64,000 nt of DNA, from assembly GCA_965223545.1 (NCBI GenBank), contig OZ245006.1:7680001-7744000 (forward strand), read 5' to 3'. Below, in pieces: positions 42,992 through 49,059 of the stretch. Positions within the stretch are counted from its first letter, which is position 1; each line of letters begins with the position of its first letter. The DNA is from Planctomycetota bacterium (lineage in GTDB: Bacteria; Planctomycetota; UBA1135; UBA2386). The notes beneath the pieces are model-generated. The model was not told the origin of the DNA and did not search any database. It saw only the letters and a list, made by a program, of their open reading frames with translations. The position numbers and the translations under genes are program-made.

Positions 42992-43094
42992 ACGTACGGA
43001 GTCAGGCTCGATTTTCTCGCTTCGCGGTGCTGCCCGGCCAACGGCCGGGCAGCACCGCGAAGCGAGAAAATCGAGCCTGACTCCGTACGTTCAG
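42988..43094. repeat. Perfect 107-bp palindrome (52-bp arms, AAC loop), REP/REPIN-like
   Basis: 42988-43039 is the exact reverse complement of 43043-43094. Confidence 0.92.
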
Positions 43095-44470
43095 TGCTTG
43101 ATCGCCTGCCAGCGTTCGGCGTAGTTGGCGCCGAAGTCCGGTGACTGCTCGAGGTCGTGGCAGGTCAGGCAGGTGTTGTGGTCGCTGCGTTCGATCAGGG
43201 TCGGGTCGCCGTCTTCGATGTGCTTGCTGCCCGGACCGTGGCACTGCTCGCAGCCCACGTCGGCAAGCCGCGGGGTTTGCTTCGGGTTGACGAAGCCCGA
43301 CTCGTAGCCGTAGCCGACGGTGTGGCAGCGCACGCAGTCGGGGTAGCGGGTCACCGGCCAGCCGTAGCGATCGCCTTGCTCGGCCTCCTCCAAGGTGCGC
43401 CAGGCGTGCGCGTGCGCGGTGGTCTTCCAGACCTCGACCGCGTCCTCGTGGCAATCGACACAGGCGTCGTTGCCGACGTAGTGGGCGCCGTTCTCGGTGG
43501 GGATCACGCCCGCCATCTGCTCGAGCACGCCGCCCTCGGCGACCATCTGCCGGTGGGCGAGTAGGGCGAGCTTGGCGTCGCGGTCCTCGAGCGCGCCCTT
43601 GGCGGTCTCGCTGCCCTGCAGCCGGATGACTCGGTAGCGGGTGACCACCGGGGCGTCGTCCTTGCGGGTCAAGGTGACGTCGAGCAGCATGCGGCCGCGG
43701 GTGCCGACGAAAACCACCGGGACCGGATTGCCGGGTTCGAGCGCGGGTGGCGGCTCGGCGATTTCGGCGCAAACGCCGACGACGAGATCGGGTGCCGGCT
43801 GCAGCGCGGCCTGGGCGCGCACGTCGGCGGGGCTGCCGTGTACCAGCAGGATCCTCAGGGCATCGCTGGGCACGCCGGCCATCGCCGCGCTCCACGCGGC
43901 GGCCGGCGGCACGAGCTCGAGGCGCGCGGCGGCCGGCTCCGGCACCGACAGTGCCAGCGCACCGACCCGCACCGACACCTCGCCGGCTTGCAGGTCGAGG
44001 TGTGTCGGCACGGCCCAGGGCGAGCCCTCGGGCGAGGCCAGGTCGGAGCAGACGAACGGAAACGCGCTGGTGTACGCCGCCAGCTCCTCGAGCGGCAAGT
44101 CCAGCTCGTTGGGGCCGACGCCGATGGCGTGGTACTCGGACTGCGGCATCGCCAGCAGGCTGAGCGCGGTCATCAGCTTCATGCTGTCGAGGGGCGTGCC
44201 GCCGGTCACCAAGTTGCCGCCCTCGAGCAGCAGGTCGAACTCCTTGTCCTGGCGCAGATGGAATACCCGTCGCGGCAGGCCGCCGAGTTGGGCGGCGGCG
44301 CAGCCGCAGGGCTCGAGCCGCCCCTGCATCGCCCCGCTCAGCCGCAGCCGCACGCGCGGCTCGGTCGCCGCTGGCGCGGCCTGCGCCTGCTCCGCCGGAG
44401 GGGTACAGGTGGGCGCGAGGGTGAGGCCGGCGACTGCGACCATGAAGGTGGACTGGGCCAGACGAGGCAT
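43091..44470 (-). CDS. Tetraheme c-type cytochrome (c554-like) with UshA-like N-terminal domain
   Basis: CVDCH, CVRCH, CEQCH, CLTCH; N-term GRLEPCGC...LGGLPRR. Confidence 0.85.
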   Translation of the reverse strand: MPRLAQSTFMVAVAGLTLAPTCTPPAEQAQAAPAATEPRVRLRLSGAMQGRLEPCGCAAAQLGGLPRRVFHLRQDKEFDLLLEGGNLVTGGTPLDSMKLMTALSLLAMPQSEYHAIGVGPNELDLPLEELAAYTSAFPFVCSDLASPEGSPWAVPTHLDLQAGEVSVRVGALALSVPEPAAARLELVPPAAAWSAAMAGVPSDALRILLVHGSPADVRAQAALQPAPDLVVGVCAEIAEPPPALEPGNPVPVVFVGTRGRMLLDVTLTRKDDAPVVTRYRVIRLQGSETAKGALEDRDAKLALLAHRQMVAEGGVLEQMAGVIPTENGAHYVGNDACVDCHEDAVEVWKTTAHAHAWRTLEEAEQGDRYGWPVTRYPDCVRCHTVGYGYESGFVNPKQTPRLADVGCEQCHGPGSKHIEDGDPTLIERSDHNTCLTCHDLEQSPDFGANYAERWQAIKH

Positions 44471-44485
44471 CGGGGCTCCGCGATT

Positions 44486-45646
44486 TCAGTGATCGGCCTT
44501 GCGAAAGCCGTAGAAGGGAATCTCGACCACGACCTTCGGTGACGCCGGCTTGCCGACCCGGACGACACCGCGGAAGCTGTCCCCGTCGAGGGTGCCGAGG
44601 TAGCGCAGGGTCAGGCGGGCCTGATGGGGCGCGCCGACCAACGGGTCCAGCCTGGCCTCGAAGTGCTCGGCCAGCGACACGCCTTTGCGGTCGATGATCC
44701 CGCGCACTTCGAAGCCGGGCTCGCGGTCGGCGTGGTCGGTGAGCAGCAGGAACTTGTCGTCGCCAGTGGGTTCGTCGAACGGGATCCTGCCGAAGCTCAG
44801 ATCGGGCCACGGCTCGACCTGGATCTCGGGAATCACCTGTCCGGAGACGGGGATGCGCAAGGTGTAGGCGGGCTCCAGCGTCGAGCTGACGGTGATCGTC
44901 GCGGTGAGCGGCCCCAGCGCGCCCGTGCCGGCGCGGGGATCGATGTGCAGGTCGAGCTTCTGCCGGCCGTTCTCGACGCCGTGCAGGGTGGCCACGACGC
45001 GGCCGTTGTCGACCAGGGCGGGGCCGAAGACCACTCCCGGCGTGTCGGCGATCAGCTCGACCGTCCGGGTCAGCGTCTTGGCCAGCGGCAGCGTGCCGAA
45101 GTCGACGTGCGCCGCGGGTTGGACCGAGACCGGAGAGTCGATCGCGAAGTGAAAGCGCACCGGCAGTGGCACGTGTGGGTGGTCTTCGTCGCCCTCCGCG
45201 CGTTGCAAGATCGCGGCGCCGTCGAGCGTGCGGCGCTCCTGGTCGACGGCCTCCTTGAGGTTGGTGTCGATGGTCAGACGGAGCAACAGCCGGTCGCCCT
45301 GCTGCAGGGTCTTGTAGGCGTGCGGCAGGTGGTCGACCTCGCGCTCGGAGCCGAGGCGGTCGATGATGACGAAGCGATGGCCCGCGCACGAGCAGCCGGA
45401 GCGAAAGCCGATCGGCGCGTAGCCGACGGCGTCGTGCGCGGCGGTGATGTCGAAGTCATGCGTCACCACGTCCCCGTGCCGCAGGCTGCCGAAGTCATGC
45501 TCCAGGACGATGTCGCCGGGATCCAGCTGCCCAGCGATGGGCGCTTCCGCCGTTCCGGTCGCCGGATCGGCGGTGGACGCGTCCGATTTGCTGCAGCCGA
45601 CTCCGGCAAGAGTGGCTGCCAGCAACGGAAGACCGGTGCGAAACAT
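44486..45646 (-). CDS. Hypothetical lipoprotein with Ig-like (DUF1573-like) repeats
   Basis: LAGVGC lipobox; HDFGSL..GCSCA, VDFGTL, LSFGRI. Confidence 0.65.
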   Translation of the reverse strand: MFRTGLPLLAATLAGVGCSKSDASTADPATGTAEAPIAGQLDPGDIVLEHDFGSLRHGDVVTHDFDITAAHDAVGYAPIGFRSGCSCAGHRFVIIDRLGSEREVDHLPHAYKTLQQGDRLLLRLTIDTNLKEAVDQERRTLDGAAILQRAEGDEDHPHVPLPVRFHFAIDSPVSVQPAAHVDFGTLPLAKTLTRTVELIADTPGVVFGPALVDNGRVVATLHGVENGRQKLDLHIDPRAGTGALGPLTATITVSSTLEPAYTLRIPVSGQVIPEIQVEPWPDLSFGRIPFDEPTGDDKFLLLTDHADREPGFEVRGIIDRKGVSLAEHFEARLDPLVGAPHQARLTLRYLGTLDGDSFRGVVRVGKPASPKVVVEIPFYGFRKADH

Positions 45647-45785
45647 CGCGCGGGCAAGGATCATGGGGGGGCGTGCCGGGGCGGTCGGTGGACGTCGGGG
45701 GCCAAGCATGCCGCAGGATAGTCGTCTCACCCCGGCCTGCAACGCGCGGGTCGCCCGACAACTCCACCGCGGTCCCGATTCGGCT

Positions 45786-45875: not shown

Positions 45876-46052
45876 GCGCCGACAAAAAATCGCGGCCGCC
45901 GGCACTCTCCGCGCTGCCAAGGGCATCTCCCGAGCCCTCCCCCGCAACCGCAGCCGCCGCCCCGGCAGCCAAACCATGGCACGCCTGCCACGGTCGGTGG
46001 CGCCGGCACCATGGTCACCCGCAAGATGATGGTACGGAGCCTGACCTGAAAC

Positions 46053-47435
46053 TCACCCAGCCTCGACGATCGGTATGAGCTTGTACCCGAGGGATTTAGC
46101 GTTCTGTCGGAGTCCGACGATGCGTCGCTGGGTGAAGCGCTCCTCGTAGGCCTTGGCGCCTTCGTCTACGTAGTCCTGGCCGAACTTCAGCATGCGGTAG
46201 ATGAGCAGGGCCAGTTTGCGGGCGATGGCAAAGATGGCGACGTTGCCGTCCTTCGCGCGGGCGATCTTGCGGAAGTGTGCGCCGAGAGCTGTCTGAGTAC
46301 GTTGGAGGGACAGGGCGGCCATCCGGAGGACCGTGGCGATCCTGCTGACCGCGATGTTGTTGCGGTGCTTCTTGATGCGCTTTCCACCCGAGACGGCTTG
46401 ACGTGGGCACAGGCGTAGCCAGGAGACGAAGTGCTTCTCGGTCGGGAAAGCATCGAGGTCGTAGCCGACCTCGGTGAGCACGATCATGGCCGTGCTCGGG
46501 CTGATACCGTCGATTCGCGTGAGATCACACCCGACGAGCCGGCAGAGGGCATCGCGAAGCTCCCGGCCGCCCTTCGTTCGGATGCTCCTCTCCTTGCGGG
46601 GGTCTGGATGCTCGGGGACGTCGGCCGTCTTGGCTTCCTCCGGTTGCAGGTCCTCGATCATCGCCATCAATCGCTTCTCGACCGACTCGATCTCGTGGTC
46701 GGTGTGCTCGAGCATCCGCAAGCCCGAAGCGAGAGTGAAGATGTGCTCCTCGATCCAGGTCCCTTGCAAGTGATCCGCGAGCTCCTTCTCGGAGATCTTG
46801 CAGCGCGGATCACGCAGTCTGGCGAGCGCTCGAGGGTCGCGTTCACCAGCGAGAATCGCGCGGATGATCGCGAGGCCGGTCTTGCCGGTGATGTCCGTTA
46901 CCGCGCGATGGATCGCCACGTTCATCTGATCCAGTGACCGCTGCATCAACTGCGTGTGGCGCGTGCGCTGCGCGATCAAAGACGCGGCATGGCGTTGCAG
47001 GGTCCGCAACGCACAGATGTCCTTCGGAGGCCGGAACGAAGCGCGAATGAGGCCATAGGTGTGTAGCTTCTGCAGCCAACTGCAATCGCTGGCATCGGAC
47101 TTGGAGCGGCCCGGCACGTTCTTCACCTCGCGGGCATTCGCGAGGATGACCTCGAAGCCTCTCGACTCGAGTAGCTCGTAGACGGGAATCCAGTAGACAT
47201 AGGTGCTCTCCATCGCGACGGATCGCACTCCGAGCTCCTCCAGCCAGTCCGCGAGCGCCTCTAGTTGGGGCGTCGTCGTTCCGAATCGCTTGATCGGACG
47301 ACTGCCGTCGGGTGCTGCTGCGCACACCCAGTGCTCGCGGCTGCCGATGTCGATTCCGGCGGCGTTGGGCTTCACGACTGGTAATACTTCCGCTGCGGGC
47401 TTCTTGCCCTTCCTCGTTCTGCCCTTCCGAGCCAT
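46053..47435 (-). CDS. IS110 family DEDD recombinase/transposase
   Basis: GIDIGS, AMESTYVYW, KSDASD, IDGISP, PRQAVSGG, AIARKLA. Confidence 0.93.
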   Translation of the reverse strand: MARKGRTRKGKKPAAEVLPVVKPNAAGIDIGSREHWVCAAAPDGSRPIKRFGTTTPQLEALADWLEELGVRSVAMESTYVYWIPVYELLESRGFEVILANAREVKNVPGRSKSDASDCSWLQKLHTYGLIRASFRPPKDICALRTLQRHAASLIAQRTRHTQLMQRSLDQMNVAIHRAVTDITGKTGLAIIRAILAGERDPRALARLRDPRCKISEKELADHLQGTWIEEHIFTLASGLRMLEHTDHEIESVEKRLMAMIEDLQPEEAKTADVPEHPDPRKERSIRTKGGRELRDALCRLVGCDLTRIDGISPSTAMIVLTEVGYDLDAFPTEKHFVSWLRLCPRQAVSGGKRIKKHRNNIAVSRIATVLRMAALSLQRTQTALGAHFRKIARAKDGNVAIFAIARKLALLIYRMLKFGQDYVDEGAKAYEERFTQRRIVGLRQNAKSLGYKLIPIVEAG

Positions 47436-47444
47436 ACTTCATCC

Positions 47445-47640
47445 TCCTTGTTGTGGTGGGCCCGGCCCGAGGCGGCGATCAAACGAATCTGACCTGCGGG
47501 AGTGGGCACGGCGACGTGCCCCTCACCAGTGAAGGATGGCCAACTCGGACCCAGACTGGCTCTGGGGCAAACGTGCTCCAGTGGCTATTGGGGGCGTAGC
47601 TGCCGGGCCCCTCACACGTTCCCCGCCCCCTTCCTCAGCG
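47445..47640 (-). ncRNA. Candidate IS110 bridge RNA (boundaries approximate)
   Basis: Non-coding left end containing GAGCCAG (target+core) and CAGGTCAG (donor+core) plus hairpins. Confidence 0.6.
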
Positions 47641-47700
47641 GCTAGTTTCCTGCCCTGAAGGGCCGACAAAATCTGTCGGGGCAGGACTGGCTCCGTACCG

Positions 47701-49059
47701 TCAGATGCCGTGGCGCCGCAGTTTGCGATAGAGCGTGGTCACGTCGATCTGCAGCGCGCGCGCGGCCGCCGTCTTGTTGCCGCCGGCCTCGGCCAGCGCC
47801 TCGCGCAGCAGCCGGCCTTCGAGCTGCTCGGTCGCGGCGCGCACCCGGTCGGCGAGCGAGCCCGAGGTCGCGGAGGTGACGCCGTCGCTGGTGCCCGGGC
47901 CGTGCAGACCGAGGTCGGCGACGTCGATCTCGCGCCCGCCGCAGACCAGCACCGCCCGTCGCACCGCATTGCGCAGCTCGCGCAGGTTGCCGGGCCAGGG
48001 ATGCGCCTCCAGCGCTGCCATCGCGGCCGCGGTCAGGCCGGTGACTTGGCAGCCGAGCTCGGCGGTGGCCTCGCCCAAGAATTGCTCGACGAAGTGGTGC
48101 AGGTCCGTGGGGCGGGTGCGCAGCGGGGGGATCTCGACGCGGAACTCGGCCACGCGGTGGTAGAGGTCGATGCGAAACGCGCCGGCGCCGATGGCGTCCT
48201 CGAGCTGGGCGTTGGTGGCGCACAGCAGCCGCGCCTCGAACGGCACCGGCTCGCCGCCGCCGACCGGCGCCACGACGCGTTCTTGCAGAGTGCGCAGCAG
48301 CTTGGCCTGCAGCGCCAACGGCAGGTTGCCCAACTCGTCGAGGAACAGCGTGCCGCCGTGCGCGGTGCGAAACAGACCCGGGCTGGCGCTGTCGGCGCCG
48401 GTGAATGCGCCCTTCTTGTGGCCGAACAGCTGGCTCTCCATCAGCGGCTCGGGCAGCGCGCCACAGTCGACGGCCACGAACGGGCCGCTGGCGGCCGGCG
48501 AGCGCCGGTGGATCTCGCGGGCGACCACCTCCTTGCCGGTGCCGGACTCGCCCTGGATCAACACCGACAGCGTGGGTTGTGGCGCGACCAGATCGATCGC
48601 GCGCTGCAGCTCGAGGGCCGCCGGGCTGCTGCCGAAACCGACCTTCTGGCGCGCCAGCCGCGTCTTCAGCGTGGCGACTTCGCGCCGCAGCGCACCGCGC
48701 TCGGCGGCCCGCCGCACCGTGGCCAGCAGCCGGTCCGCATCGAACGGCTTGGACAGGTAGTCGTAGGCGCCGTCGCGCATGGCGCCGACCGCGGTGTCGA
48801 CGTCCTCGACCGCCGAAAGCAGGATCACCGGCATGTCCGGCTTGCTCTCGGCCAGCGCGCGCAACATCGCCACCCCGTCCATCTCCGGCATGCGGATGTC
48901 GGACAGCACGACGTCGGGCGGCGTGTCGCGCACCGCGTCGAGCGCGGCGGCTCCGTGCTCGGCTTCGCGCACGGCGAAACCGTGGTCGCGCAGCAGGCGC
49001 CCGAGCACCCAGCGCATGTCGGGCTCGTCGTCGACGATCAGGACGGTAGATTCGCGCAT
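47701..49059 (-). CDS. sigma54-dependent response regulator (NtrC type)
   Basis: REC, GESGTGKE, GAFTGA, WPGNLRELRN, Fis-type HTH. Confidence 0.93.
   Translation of the reverse strand: MRESTVLIVDDEPDMRWVLGRLLRDHGFAVREAEHGAAALDAVRDTPPDVVLSDIRMPEMDGVAMLRALAESKPDMPVILLSAVEDVDTAVGAMRDGAYDYLSKPFDADRLLATVRRAAERGALRREVATLKTRLARQKVGFGSSPAALELQRAIDLVAPQPTLSVLIQGESGTGKEVVAREIHRRSPAASGPFVAVDCGALPEPLMESQLFGHKKGAFTGADSASPGLFRTAHGGTLFLDELGNLPLALQAKLLRTLQERVVAPVGGGEPVPFEARLLCATNAQLEDAIGAGAFRIDLYHRVAEFRVEIPPLRTRPTDLHHFVEQFLGEATAELGCQVTGLTAAAMAALEAHPWPGNLRELRNAVRRAVLVCGGREIDVADLGLHGPGTSDGVTSATSGSLADRVRAATEQLEGRLLREALAEAGGNKTAAARALQIDVTTLYRKLRRHGI

Follow-up and report, generated by a model that had tools for sequence, protein, structure and literature searches.

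An IS110 element whose left donor guide reads an internal, same-strand site: sequence evidence for a donor probably read as one folded strand

Which strands of donor and target DNA does an IS110 bridge recombinase read? The question is raised by an insertion sequence (IS) at positions 46043-47686 of a 64,000-nucleotide stretch of a Planctomycetota bacterium genome (contig OZ245006.1, positions 7,680,001 to 7,744,000; this whole stretch is the window, with + and - its forward and reverse strands). It is an intact IS110 bridge-recombinase element that has recently expanded, and it lies between two CT dinucleotides, the cores, which define what we call the CT strand. Covariation across relatives shows its predicted guides B, C and D all pairing with that strand, guide C at a site inside the element and not at its end. 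What is new is this guide layout, in which the left donor guide reads an internal same-strand site; the element itself is a new member of the known IS110 bridge family. The reading that we favour, with a probability of roughly 60%, is that the donor would be one strand folded on itself and inserted by single strand exchange, directed by a bridge RNA of IS621 topology, antisense to the CT-core strand, that reads almost only that strand. The layout has strong comparative support, and the mechanism is proposed from the sequence. The features on which the argument turns are the following.

46043-47686, both cores on +: IS110 element between CT cores; copies in the host genome share both ends
46041..46042, +: CT core at the gene's 3' end, in 23/23 copies
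47687..47688, +: CT core at the gene's 5' end, in 23/23 copies
47459..47609, -: predicted core of the bridge RNA, with closing stem, target loop and donor loop; the consensus fold of 55 relatives contains compensatory pairs
47556..47562, -: target-loop guide B, GAGCCAG, at the loop's 3' side; predicted CT-strand partners are core and right target (z 16.5, 30 distinct guides)
47489..47496, -: donor-loop guide D, CAGGTCAG, at the loop's 3' side; predicted CT-strand partners are core and right donor
46043..46047, +: right donor (5 nt), matched by guide D at 206/210 bases in 42 relatives
47530..47537, -: donor-loop guide C, ATCCTT-CA, at the loop's 5' side; it covaries with an internal left-end site instead of the element end
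47656..47663, +: internal site of guide C, with CT-strand sequence TG-AAGGGC, from covariation

Bridge RNA and guides

The comparison started from 170 relative loci, which formed 119 clusters at 93% identity. A leader profile made from 12 hand-picked leaders matched 146 of the 170 loci, and 106 were parsed. Set 1 consists of the 56 cluster representatives with a strong profile match; the second set holds 35 of 56 more distant clusters, 21 having been dropped for want of the anchor motif. Loop sides are named A and B in the target loop and C and D in the donor loop. Element ends were placed by end motifs and not by guides, and a few parse errors remain in the set-1 covariation counts.

The consensus fold of 55 relatives has a closing stem and two hairpins, each with a large internal loop, and shows compensatory pairs in the topology of IS621; the bridge RNA region had no Rfam match. 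An earlier note on this DNA, made from the sequence alone, had placed a target loop ahead of a donor loop and proposed RNA folding and guide covariation across relatives as checks. The fold bears out that order, and covariation confirms two of the guides that it had named. Its proposed target guide, GAGCCAG (guide B), agrees with the flank beside the gene's 5' end at 212/235 bases in 47 elements, against 94.1 in shuffles (z 16.5, 30 distinct guides). Its proposed donor guide, CAGGTCAG (guide D), agrees with the short (right) end at 206/210 bases in 42 relatives (shuffled 151.1, z 11.2), with 13 concordant and 0 discordant changes in 24 independent pairs. Cross controls, guide B against the end and guide D against the flank, were null. 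In shuffles of 165 nt from the non-coding region, the chance occurrence of each motif taken alone was 23% for GGAGC, 1.7% for GAGCCAG and 0.3% for CAGGTCAG. Two features of IS110 membership, a two-loop non-coding RNA and guides covarying with target and donor, are thus present.

The base next to guide B covaries at the handshake position (37/44 against 27.4), and the second base does not do so significantly (22 against 17.6). To judge by these counts, the base after guide B behaves as a handshake guide, a reading based on the IS621 mechanism (PMC11208158; here and below, statements on published work refer to the accessible parts of the sources cited). The handshake covariation implies that the CT strand is the strand cut and exchanged.

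As for the second donor guide, which the earlier note could not clearly identify by eye, such a guide does exist (ATCCTT-CA, 47537-47530), but it reads an internal site on the same strand and not the element end. Guide C agrees with this site, mostly 28-39 nt from the core, at 277/312 bases in 52 relatives, where shuffles gave 211.7 ± 5.0 with a maximum of 234 (z 13.1); against the canonical left donor the agreement was 38/288 in 48 elements, with 35.6 in shuffles (z 0.6). Departures of guide and site from their consensus (n=51) were the same in both 44 times, differed 5 times, and were limited to the guide or to the site 12 times each. Among the 24 closest pairs, guide C and the internal site changed concordantly in 12 cases and discordantly in 1, with 6 guide-only and 14 site-only changes, whereas at the canonical position there were 0 concordant and 12 discordant changes. 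The second set gave 152/210 against 92.2 ± 6.0 for the internal site (z 10, 27 distinct guides; the best of three spacings was allowed in data and control alike) and 45/168 against 39.5 for the canonical position (z 1.2). The CA after guide C is found in 56/56, a count partly built into the parser. Transition mismatches between guide C and site favour wobble with the CT strand by 13 to 3.

It is improbable that guide C and site are identical for an RNA-level reason, such as alternate pairing of both with a third RNA segment or an Asr9-like antisense RNA, or as the leftover of a module duplication. ISPpu9 does make an antisense RNA over this region (PMC12288879) and the junction folds as well on the sense strand, but no third segment complementary to guide C or site was found in the RNA downstream of the repeat (287 against 288.8), and a third RNA partner was rejected on this ground. 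Besides, guide C and site are seen to change in concert at protein identities from 41 to 100%, a pattern that would be lost by drift following a duplication.

The target loop has a 5' side too, with two segments of different nature.

47575..47579, -: GGAGC, scaffold in the apical stem of the target loop and no guide, from motif conservation and fold
47582..47590, -: segment A, 5' side of the target loop, at the position of a left target guide; only AGC-C matches the target, and the match is weak across relatives
47680..47686, +: left donor top arm GGCAGGA, with no guide C match; its last base is predicted to pair with the target-loop handshake position
47505..47520, -: apical hairpin of the donor loop, from sequence and consensus fold

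GGAGC, listed by the earlier note ahead of the target guide, does not hold up as a guide of its own, because the motif is common to all relatives whatever their target, as a near-invariant CA(C/T)TGG(A/T)GC, and forms the apical stem of the target loop. Its likeness to the target palindrome, a repetitive extragenic palindrome (REP), is a coincidence. A left target guide of the IS621 type would be 8-9 nt long and read the opposite strand; at that position segment A agrees with the left target at 79/250 bases against 57.6 (z 3.3), with 9 concordant and 35 discordant changes. A 55%-identical relative in another genome (G679), with 81 matches of which 60 were fetched and 57 parsed, is informative here. 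Its 43 distinct flanks on the guide B side closely follow guide B, and the 35 distinct flanks on the opposite side have no match to segment A, so that by its flanks this relative selects targets on one side only.

These results bear on the canonical IS621-type arrangement, with four guides on both strands of a duplex target and donor, GGAGC as left target guide and a left donor guide that went unrecognised. The protein fold and RNA topology are as in IS621 and the weak opposite-strand covariation of segment A (z 3.3) would suit it, but GGAGC is conserved whatever the target, and paired; the 5' side of the donor loop has no canonical left donor match in either set, with 0 concordant changes; and target choice in G679 is one-sided. 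The tests at the canonical positions have largely refuted this arrangement, and we consider it very improbable indeed.

A proposed donor folded from one strand

The left end has an anatomy of its own around the internal site.

47663..47679, no strand assigned: DNA hairpin between internal site and core, which would let the CT strand fold back; from sequence, with the fold retained in relatives
46048..46053, +: subterminal inverted repeat, short-end half, from compensatory changes
47644..47649, -: subterminal inverted repeat, left-end half, from compensatory changes

From the core inward, the left end runs through 7-8 nt and a free-sequence hairpin to the site, which is followed by CA or CG, 4-6 nt (5 in 34/51) and GAAAC, and the short end reads GTTTC, 5 nt, core. 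The internal dinucleotide is thus spaced from its own repeat half by 5 nt in 34/51 and by 4-6 nt throughout, a mirror image of the 5-nt spacing at the real core. The hairpin has a median of 6 pairs and is steadier than its shuffles (median z -2.0, below -1 in 35/44 relatives). The subterminal repeat is 6-9 bp long, with one half ~40 nt inside, and its halves show compensatory changes at the two outer positions (35/46 against 16.9 and 43/46 against 30.1). When junctions were folded as single DNA strands, the repeat was paired in 37/41. Of 44 hairpin segments, 35 are more stable on the CT strand and 8 are the reverse, a bias that composition could cause, and the whole junction is without such a difference.

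These parts can be assembled into a mechanism. By sequence and covariation, guide B reads the core plus 5 nt of target, guide D the core plus 5 nt of the short end, and guide C 6 nt plus TG/CG ~30 nt inside the left end, each on the CT strand. Guides C and D would be the antiparallel sides of one RNA loop, and since those sides are antiparallel, sites on one strand can fill the loop only if the strand doubles back. The left-end hairpin would close one side and the subterminal inverted repeat the other, leaving an open bubble of ~6-8 + 2 + 5 nt, a size that would equal the 14-nt donor of IS621. The donor would then be the folded CT strand of the circle junction, either in a single-stranded circle or in a cruciform extruded from a double-stranded one. 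The recombinase would cut after CT and exchange that strand into the CT strand of the target, so that the whole strand is inserted. The TG/CG in the folded arm fits the CA after guide C and differs from the AG of the target; with TG/CG where a duplex has AG, a second exchange would be disfavoured, and were it to happen it would leave hairpin-capped broken ends. Replication or repair would fix the insertion, which makes this a copy-out, single-strand paste-in scheme. For both CazIS110 (10.1101/2025.10.25.684509) and IS621 (10.64898/2026.08.31.748434) there are reports of single-strand copy-out and of top-strand insertion.

The same covariation and wobble bias would be explained equally well if guide C paired with the internal site in double-stranded DNA for some other job, such as loading the complex at the left end in excision or repressing an internal promoter beside the inverted repeat, while guide D alone drove a half-match strand transfer. 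Half-match, donor-only excision is reported for IS621 (10.64898/2026.08.31.748434), ISPpu9 has an internal promoter and its circle formation tolerates loss of the left-end repeat (PMC12288879), and one-ended events are present in the host genome (copy at C1:4827873-4826231). Such duplex pairing nevertheless leaves unexplained the constant presence of a free-sequence hairpin between site and core, and also the position of the site 4-6 nt from one repeat half, with the core 5 nt from the other and the halves covarying. As to the internal promoter, no promoter consensus was found at a fixed spacing from the subterminal repeat, and a sigma-70 scan of 45900-47800, as inserted and not as the rejoined junction, gave nothing. 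We regard this explanation, the main rival, as rather unlikely.

Several observations weigh against the folded-strand donor or limit it. The relatives are not independent, and both sets were inspected by eye before the parsers were written. The element's own guide C has 4/6 matches and one wobble at its internal site, 10/35 elements of the second set match at 3/6 or fewer, and the wobble bias counted on distinct combinations falls to 8 to 3 (p 0.23, not significant). In seven ISPpu9-like loci an advance prediction of a match failed (guide C against the internal site 2-3/6, against the canonical position 1-3/6). The junction folds equally well on either strand, the CT-strand hairpin carries an A.C mismatch in 17/23 copies of the host genome, and the copies have no replichore bias (12/23, against 30/86 for empty REPs, p 0.15). 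The circle junction and the bridge RNA are predictions from sequence; the former is absent from the host assembly and no such joint was seen in the contigs of three sequencing runs, where contigs can show presence and not absence. Sequence alone does not separate a single-stranded circle from an extruded cruciform. With the left-end inverted repeat of ISPpu9 mutated, minicircles were still found by end-point PCR, and its authors suggest that the repeat acts in integration (PMC12288879); CazIS110 prefers double-stranded donors ~20-fold at one junction (10.1101/2025.10.25.684509).

A wider claim can be put forward, though we would hold it only tentatively and a little short of even odds: that the long IS110 recombinases include a widespread branch of RNA-programmed single-strand integrases, in which the folded-strand donor is obligatory, both donor guides and the main target guide lie on one strand and the core mismatch limits the reaction to one exchange. 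It would be the RNA-guided counterpart of integron attC recombination. Integron attC sites and the ends of IS200/IS605 elements also provide a folded single strand as substrate, of which one strand is exchanged, as in the model proposed here. They use a tyrosine recombinase or an HUH enzyme with protein or DNA-DNA recognition, and there is no homology and no guide RNA.

This branch, then, carries sequence evidence for a donor built to be read as a folded single strand, and the single- or double-stranded nature of IS110 intermediates has been called an open question (10.64898/2026.08.31.748434). Guide prediction from short core windows (25 nt in published methods) would leave the fourth guide undetected in those members of the group, which numbers at least 7,951 related protein clusters, that share the layout. 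If true, the model would allow single-stranded donors to be inserted programmably and with no double-strand break; the guides would set only ~7 nt of target specificity, unless the structure of the target contributes more.

Comparison with known elements

The element shares with IS621 and ISCro4 (PMC11208160, PMC11208158; PDB 8wt6, 9t56) the DEDD and Tnp domains with a catalytic serine, an RNA upstream of the gene with target loop and then donor loop, an exchanged strand with a CT core, right guides that span the core plus 5 nt, a handshake base and a REP target. However, the present recombinase is ~20% identical and ~130 amino acids (aa) longer, its gene runs antisense to the CT strand, there is at most a weak left target guide, and the left donor guide matches an internal same-strand site and not the element end on the opposite strand. 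An asymmetric subterminal repeat of 6-9 bp stands here against one of 2-3 bp in IS621 and ISCro4.

The nearest studied element is ISPpu9 of Pseudomonas putida (PMC12288879, PMC8450116), which has an AG core in gene sense, a REP target and modular arrays. Its 43-bp left box with an inverted repeat and its 16-bp right box resemble the long left and short right ends of the present element, and the published boxes (Table S2) show a repeat half, 5 nt and the dinucleotide at both ends, as here. ISPpu9-like loci are 37-40% identical to the present recombinase, and in the same seven loci mentioned above guides B and D do match. The tree table of PMC11208160 places ISPpu9 in a cluster with the same long-type motifs. 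Its authors characterise the group as one without end repeats, and they map no guides (PMC12288879). The short left-box motif of ISPpu9 was not found in viral contigs.

CazIS110-1 (10.1101/2025.10.25.684509) and the half-match excision of IS621 (10.64898/2026.08.31.748434) share with the proposed scheme single-strand copy-out, a circular single-stranded product, top-strand-dominated insertion and one-sided matches; in those works, though, four guides pair canonically with both strands, and their accessible parts describe no donor folding on one strand. ISPpu10 (10.64898/2026.03.19.712850) is an IS110-group element in REPs for which a DNA stem-loop aids recognition, as is proposed here, but the stem-loop is in the target and the guides are on opposite strands. 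The IS1111 group (PMC11187229) has subterminal inverted repeats and, in gene sense, a top-strand match that precedes a bottom-strand match; its RNA lies downstream of the gene and its repeats near both ends, while here the RNA is upstream and one half ~40 nt inside. Subscription papers, figures and bioRxiv supplements apart, no same-strand or folded donor was found in the accessible IS110 literature, including PMC11208160, PMC11187229, PMC13626964 and PMC13604230, nor in the accessible parts of 10.64898/2026.03.19.712850, 10.64898/2026.08.14.744561, 10.1101/2025.05.14.653916 and 10.64898/2026.10.21.760802. Guide maps for the present clade may be contained in the picture supplement of PMC11208160.

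Recombinase, copies and target site

The remaining features are the gene and the two arms of the target.

46053..47435, -: IS110 DEDD/Tnp recombinase, 460 aa (PF01548, PF02371, NF033542; D29, E76, D114, D117 and S349 intact)
46027..46040, +: left target in CT-strand convention, the left arm of a REP whose family has 86 empty sites
47689..47703, +: right target, the right arm of this REP, which at its end overlaps the stop codon of a sigma-54 response regulator gene, 49338-47701

The earlier note's identification of an IS110 bridge-recombinase element inserted in a REP was confirmed. The open reading frame (ORF) 47435-46053 matches PF01548 and PF02371, and NF033542 at 248 bits (cut-off 140); D29, E76, D114, D117 and S349 align with the catalytic residues of IS621; and the structure model (predicted local distance difference test score, pLDDT, 86.7) has IS621 and ISCro4 as its best structural matches (IS621 8wt6, E 3.6e-13). 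Family membership is therefore seen in the domain profiles above cut-off, the aligned catalytic residues and the matching fold. A single-sequence model of the inserted protein segment (pLDDT 58) was too poor for a structure search. The length of 460 aa, which the note had remarked on, is not unusual, as the 120 nearest relatives have 443-493 aa; IS110 recombinases are given as 300-460 aa in PMC11208160. Only 10 nt separate the stop codon from the core.

The host genome (G000) has 23 full copies of the element and one internally deleted fragment. The full copies are at least 99.3% identical, with 6 distinct sequences among them, and all 23 have the same ends with CT at either side, so the boundaries are not due to chance. 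The motifs picked out by the earlier note are all where it had placed them, and the constancy of boundaries among copies on which it had staked its proposal was likewise found. The right flank starts with GGCTC in 23/23 and the left one finishes with GGAGC in 22/23. The 2-nt core is shared by both ends without further target duplication in 23/23, and empty sites hold one CT. Since the core is CT on the strand opposite the recombinase gene, it reads AG in gene sense, like that of ISPpu9. Two other delimitations were rejected: the 11-bp flanking arms are not terminal inverted repeats of the element, as they vary among copies and are found empty 86 times, and the internal AG is not the real left end, as 23/23 copies and every multi-copy relative begin directly after the outer core.

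The two 11-nt arms at the insertion are exact reverse complements, the left one including GGTACGGAGC at 46031-46040 and the right one at 47689-47699, and 22/23 copies sit in the centre of the same family of palindromes. The empty 12-mer target occurs 86 times in the host genome against 0.8-1.9 expected, each time within a longer palindrome, and so these 12-mers are, on sequence grounds, a true REP family. The 7-mer read by guide B occurs 1,959 times in the genome; the 10-mer that adds the matching bases of segment A occurs 104 times, of which 86 are empty REPs. Specificity for REPs would come from guide B together with the 4-base match of segment A, the REP hairpin or both. A 333-aa Y1 (RAYT-like) transposase gene (C1:3914465-3915547) lies between two REPs, both occupied by the IS in opposite orientations, and a second RAYT-like gene, 45% identical to the first, is found at C1:1729868-1730797.

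Some copies and sites in the host genome depart from this pattern. At C1:4826231-4829691 the IS is duplicated in tandem together with ~170 bp of right flank. The second copy has its short end joined at an unrelated CT, and this looks like a one-ended (half-match) event. In the deleted fragment (C1:988112-988240), the flank before the short end resembles the left donor and not a REP. Three unrelated REPs (C1:6715159, 7558344 and 6469846) carry at their core the first 5 short-end bases of the element and are like scars of imprecise excision at a second CT. The ribosome-binding site (window 47441-47447) has a one-base change in 17/23 copies, linked with the variant left-end hairpin. In one sequencing run (X1), the summed contig depth over window 46032-47700 was 4,000-28,000 on the element and 0-3 on the far flanks, far above 23 copies, and in another (X4) the element contig depth was ~25-fold; neither is a measure of copy number. 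Other IS110 families are present too, one with 11 copies, another with 3 and one with a single match (e.g., C1:2861513, 614549 and 7064730). Upstream in the window (43091-45742) there are two large minus-strand ORFs, one of 418 aa with no Pfam match and one of 459 aa with several CXXCH motifs near its C-terminus.

Among the relatives, several (L022-L036, L037-L055 and L207-L264) have a target guide matching the short end of their own or a sister element, and these form tandem arrays. The copies in G679 alternate with recurrent small non-coding modules resembling the ssr9 of ISPpu9. In one relative (L121, L155) the insertion lies close to the 3' end of a tRNA-like sequence, and the bases that it displaced are repeated in the element's left end. 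A sister subgroup (L003, L004, L166, L173 and L267-L276), which includes a copy common on enterobacterial plasmids, apparently has an AA core and inserts at an A-run, presumably a frameshift signal of the IS3 type by its looks.

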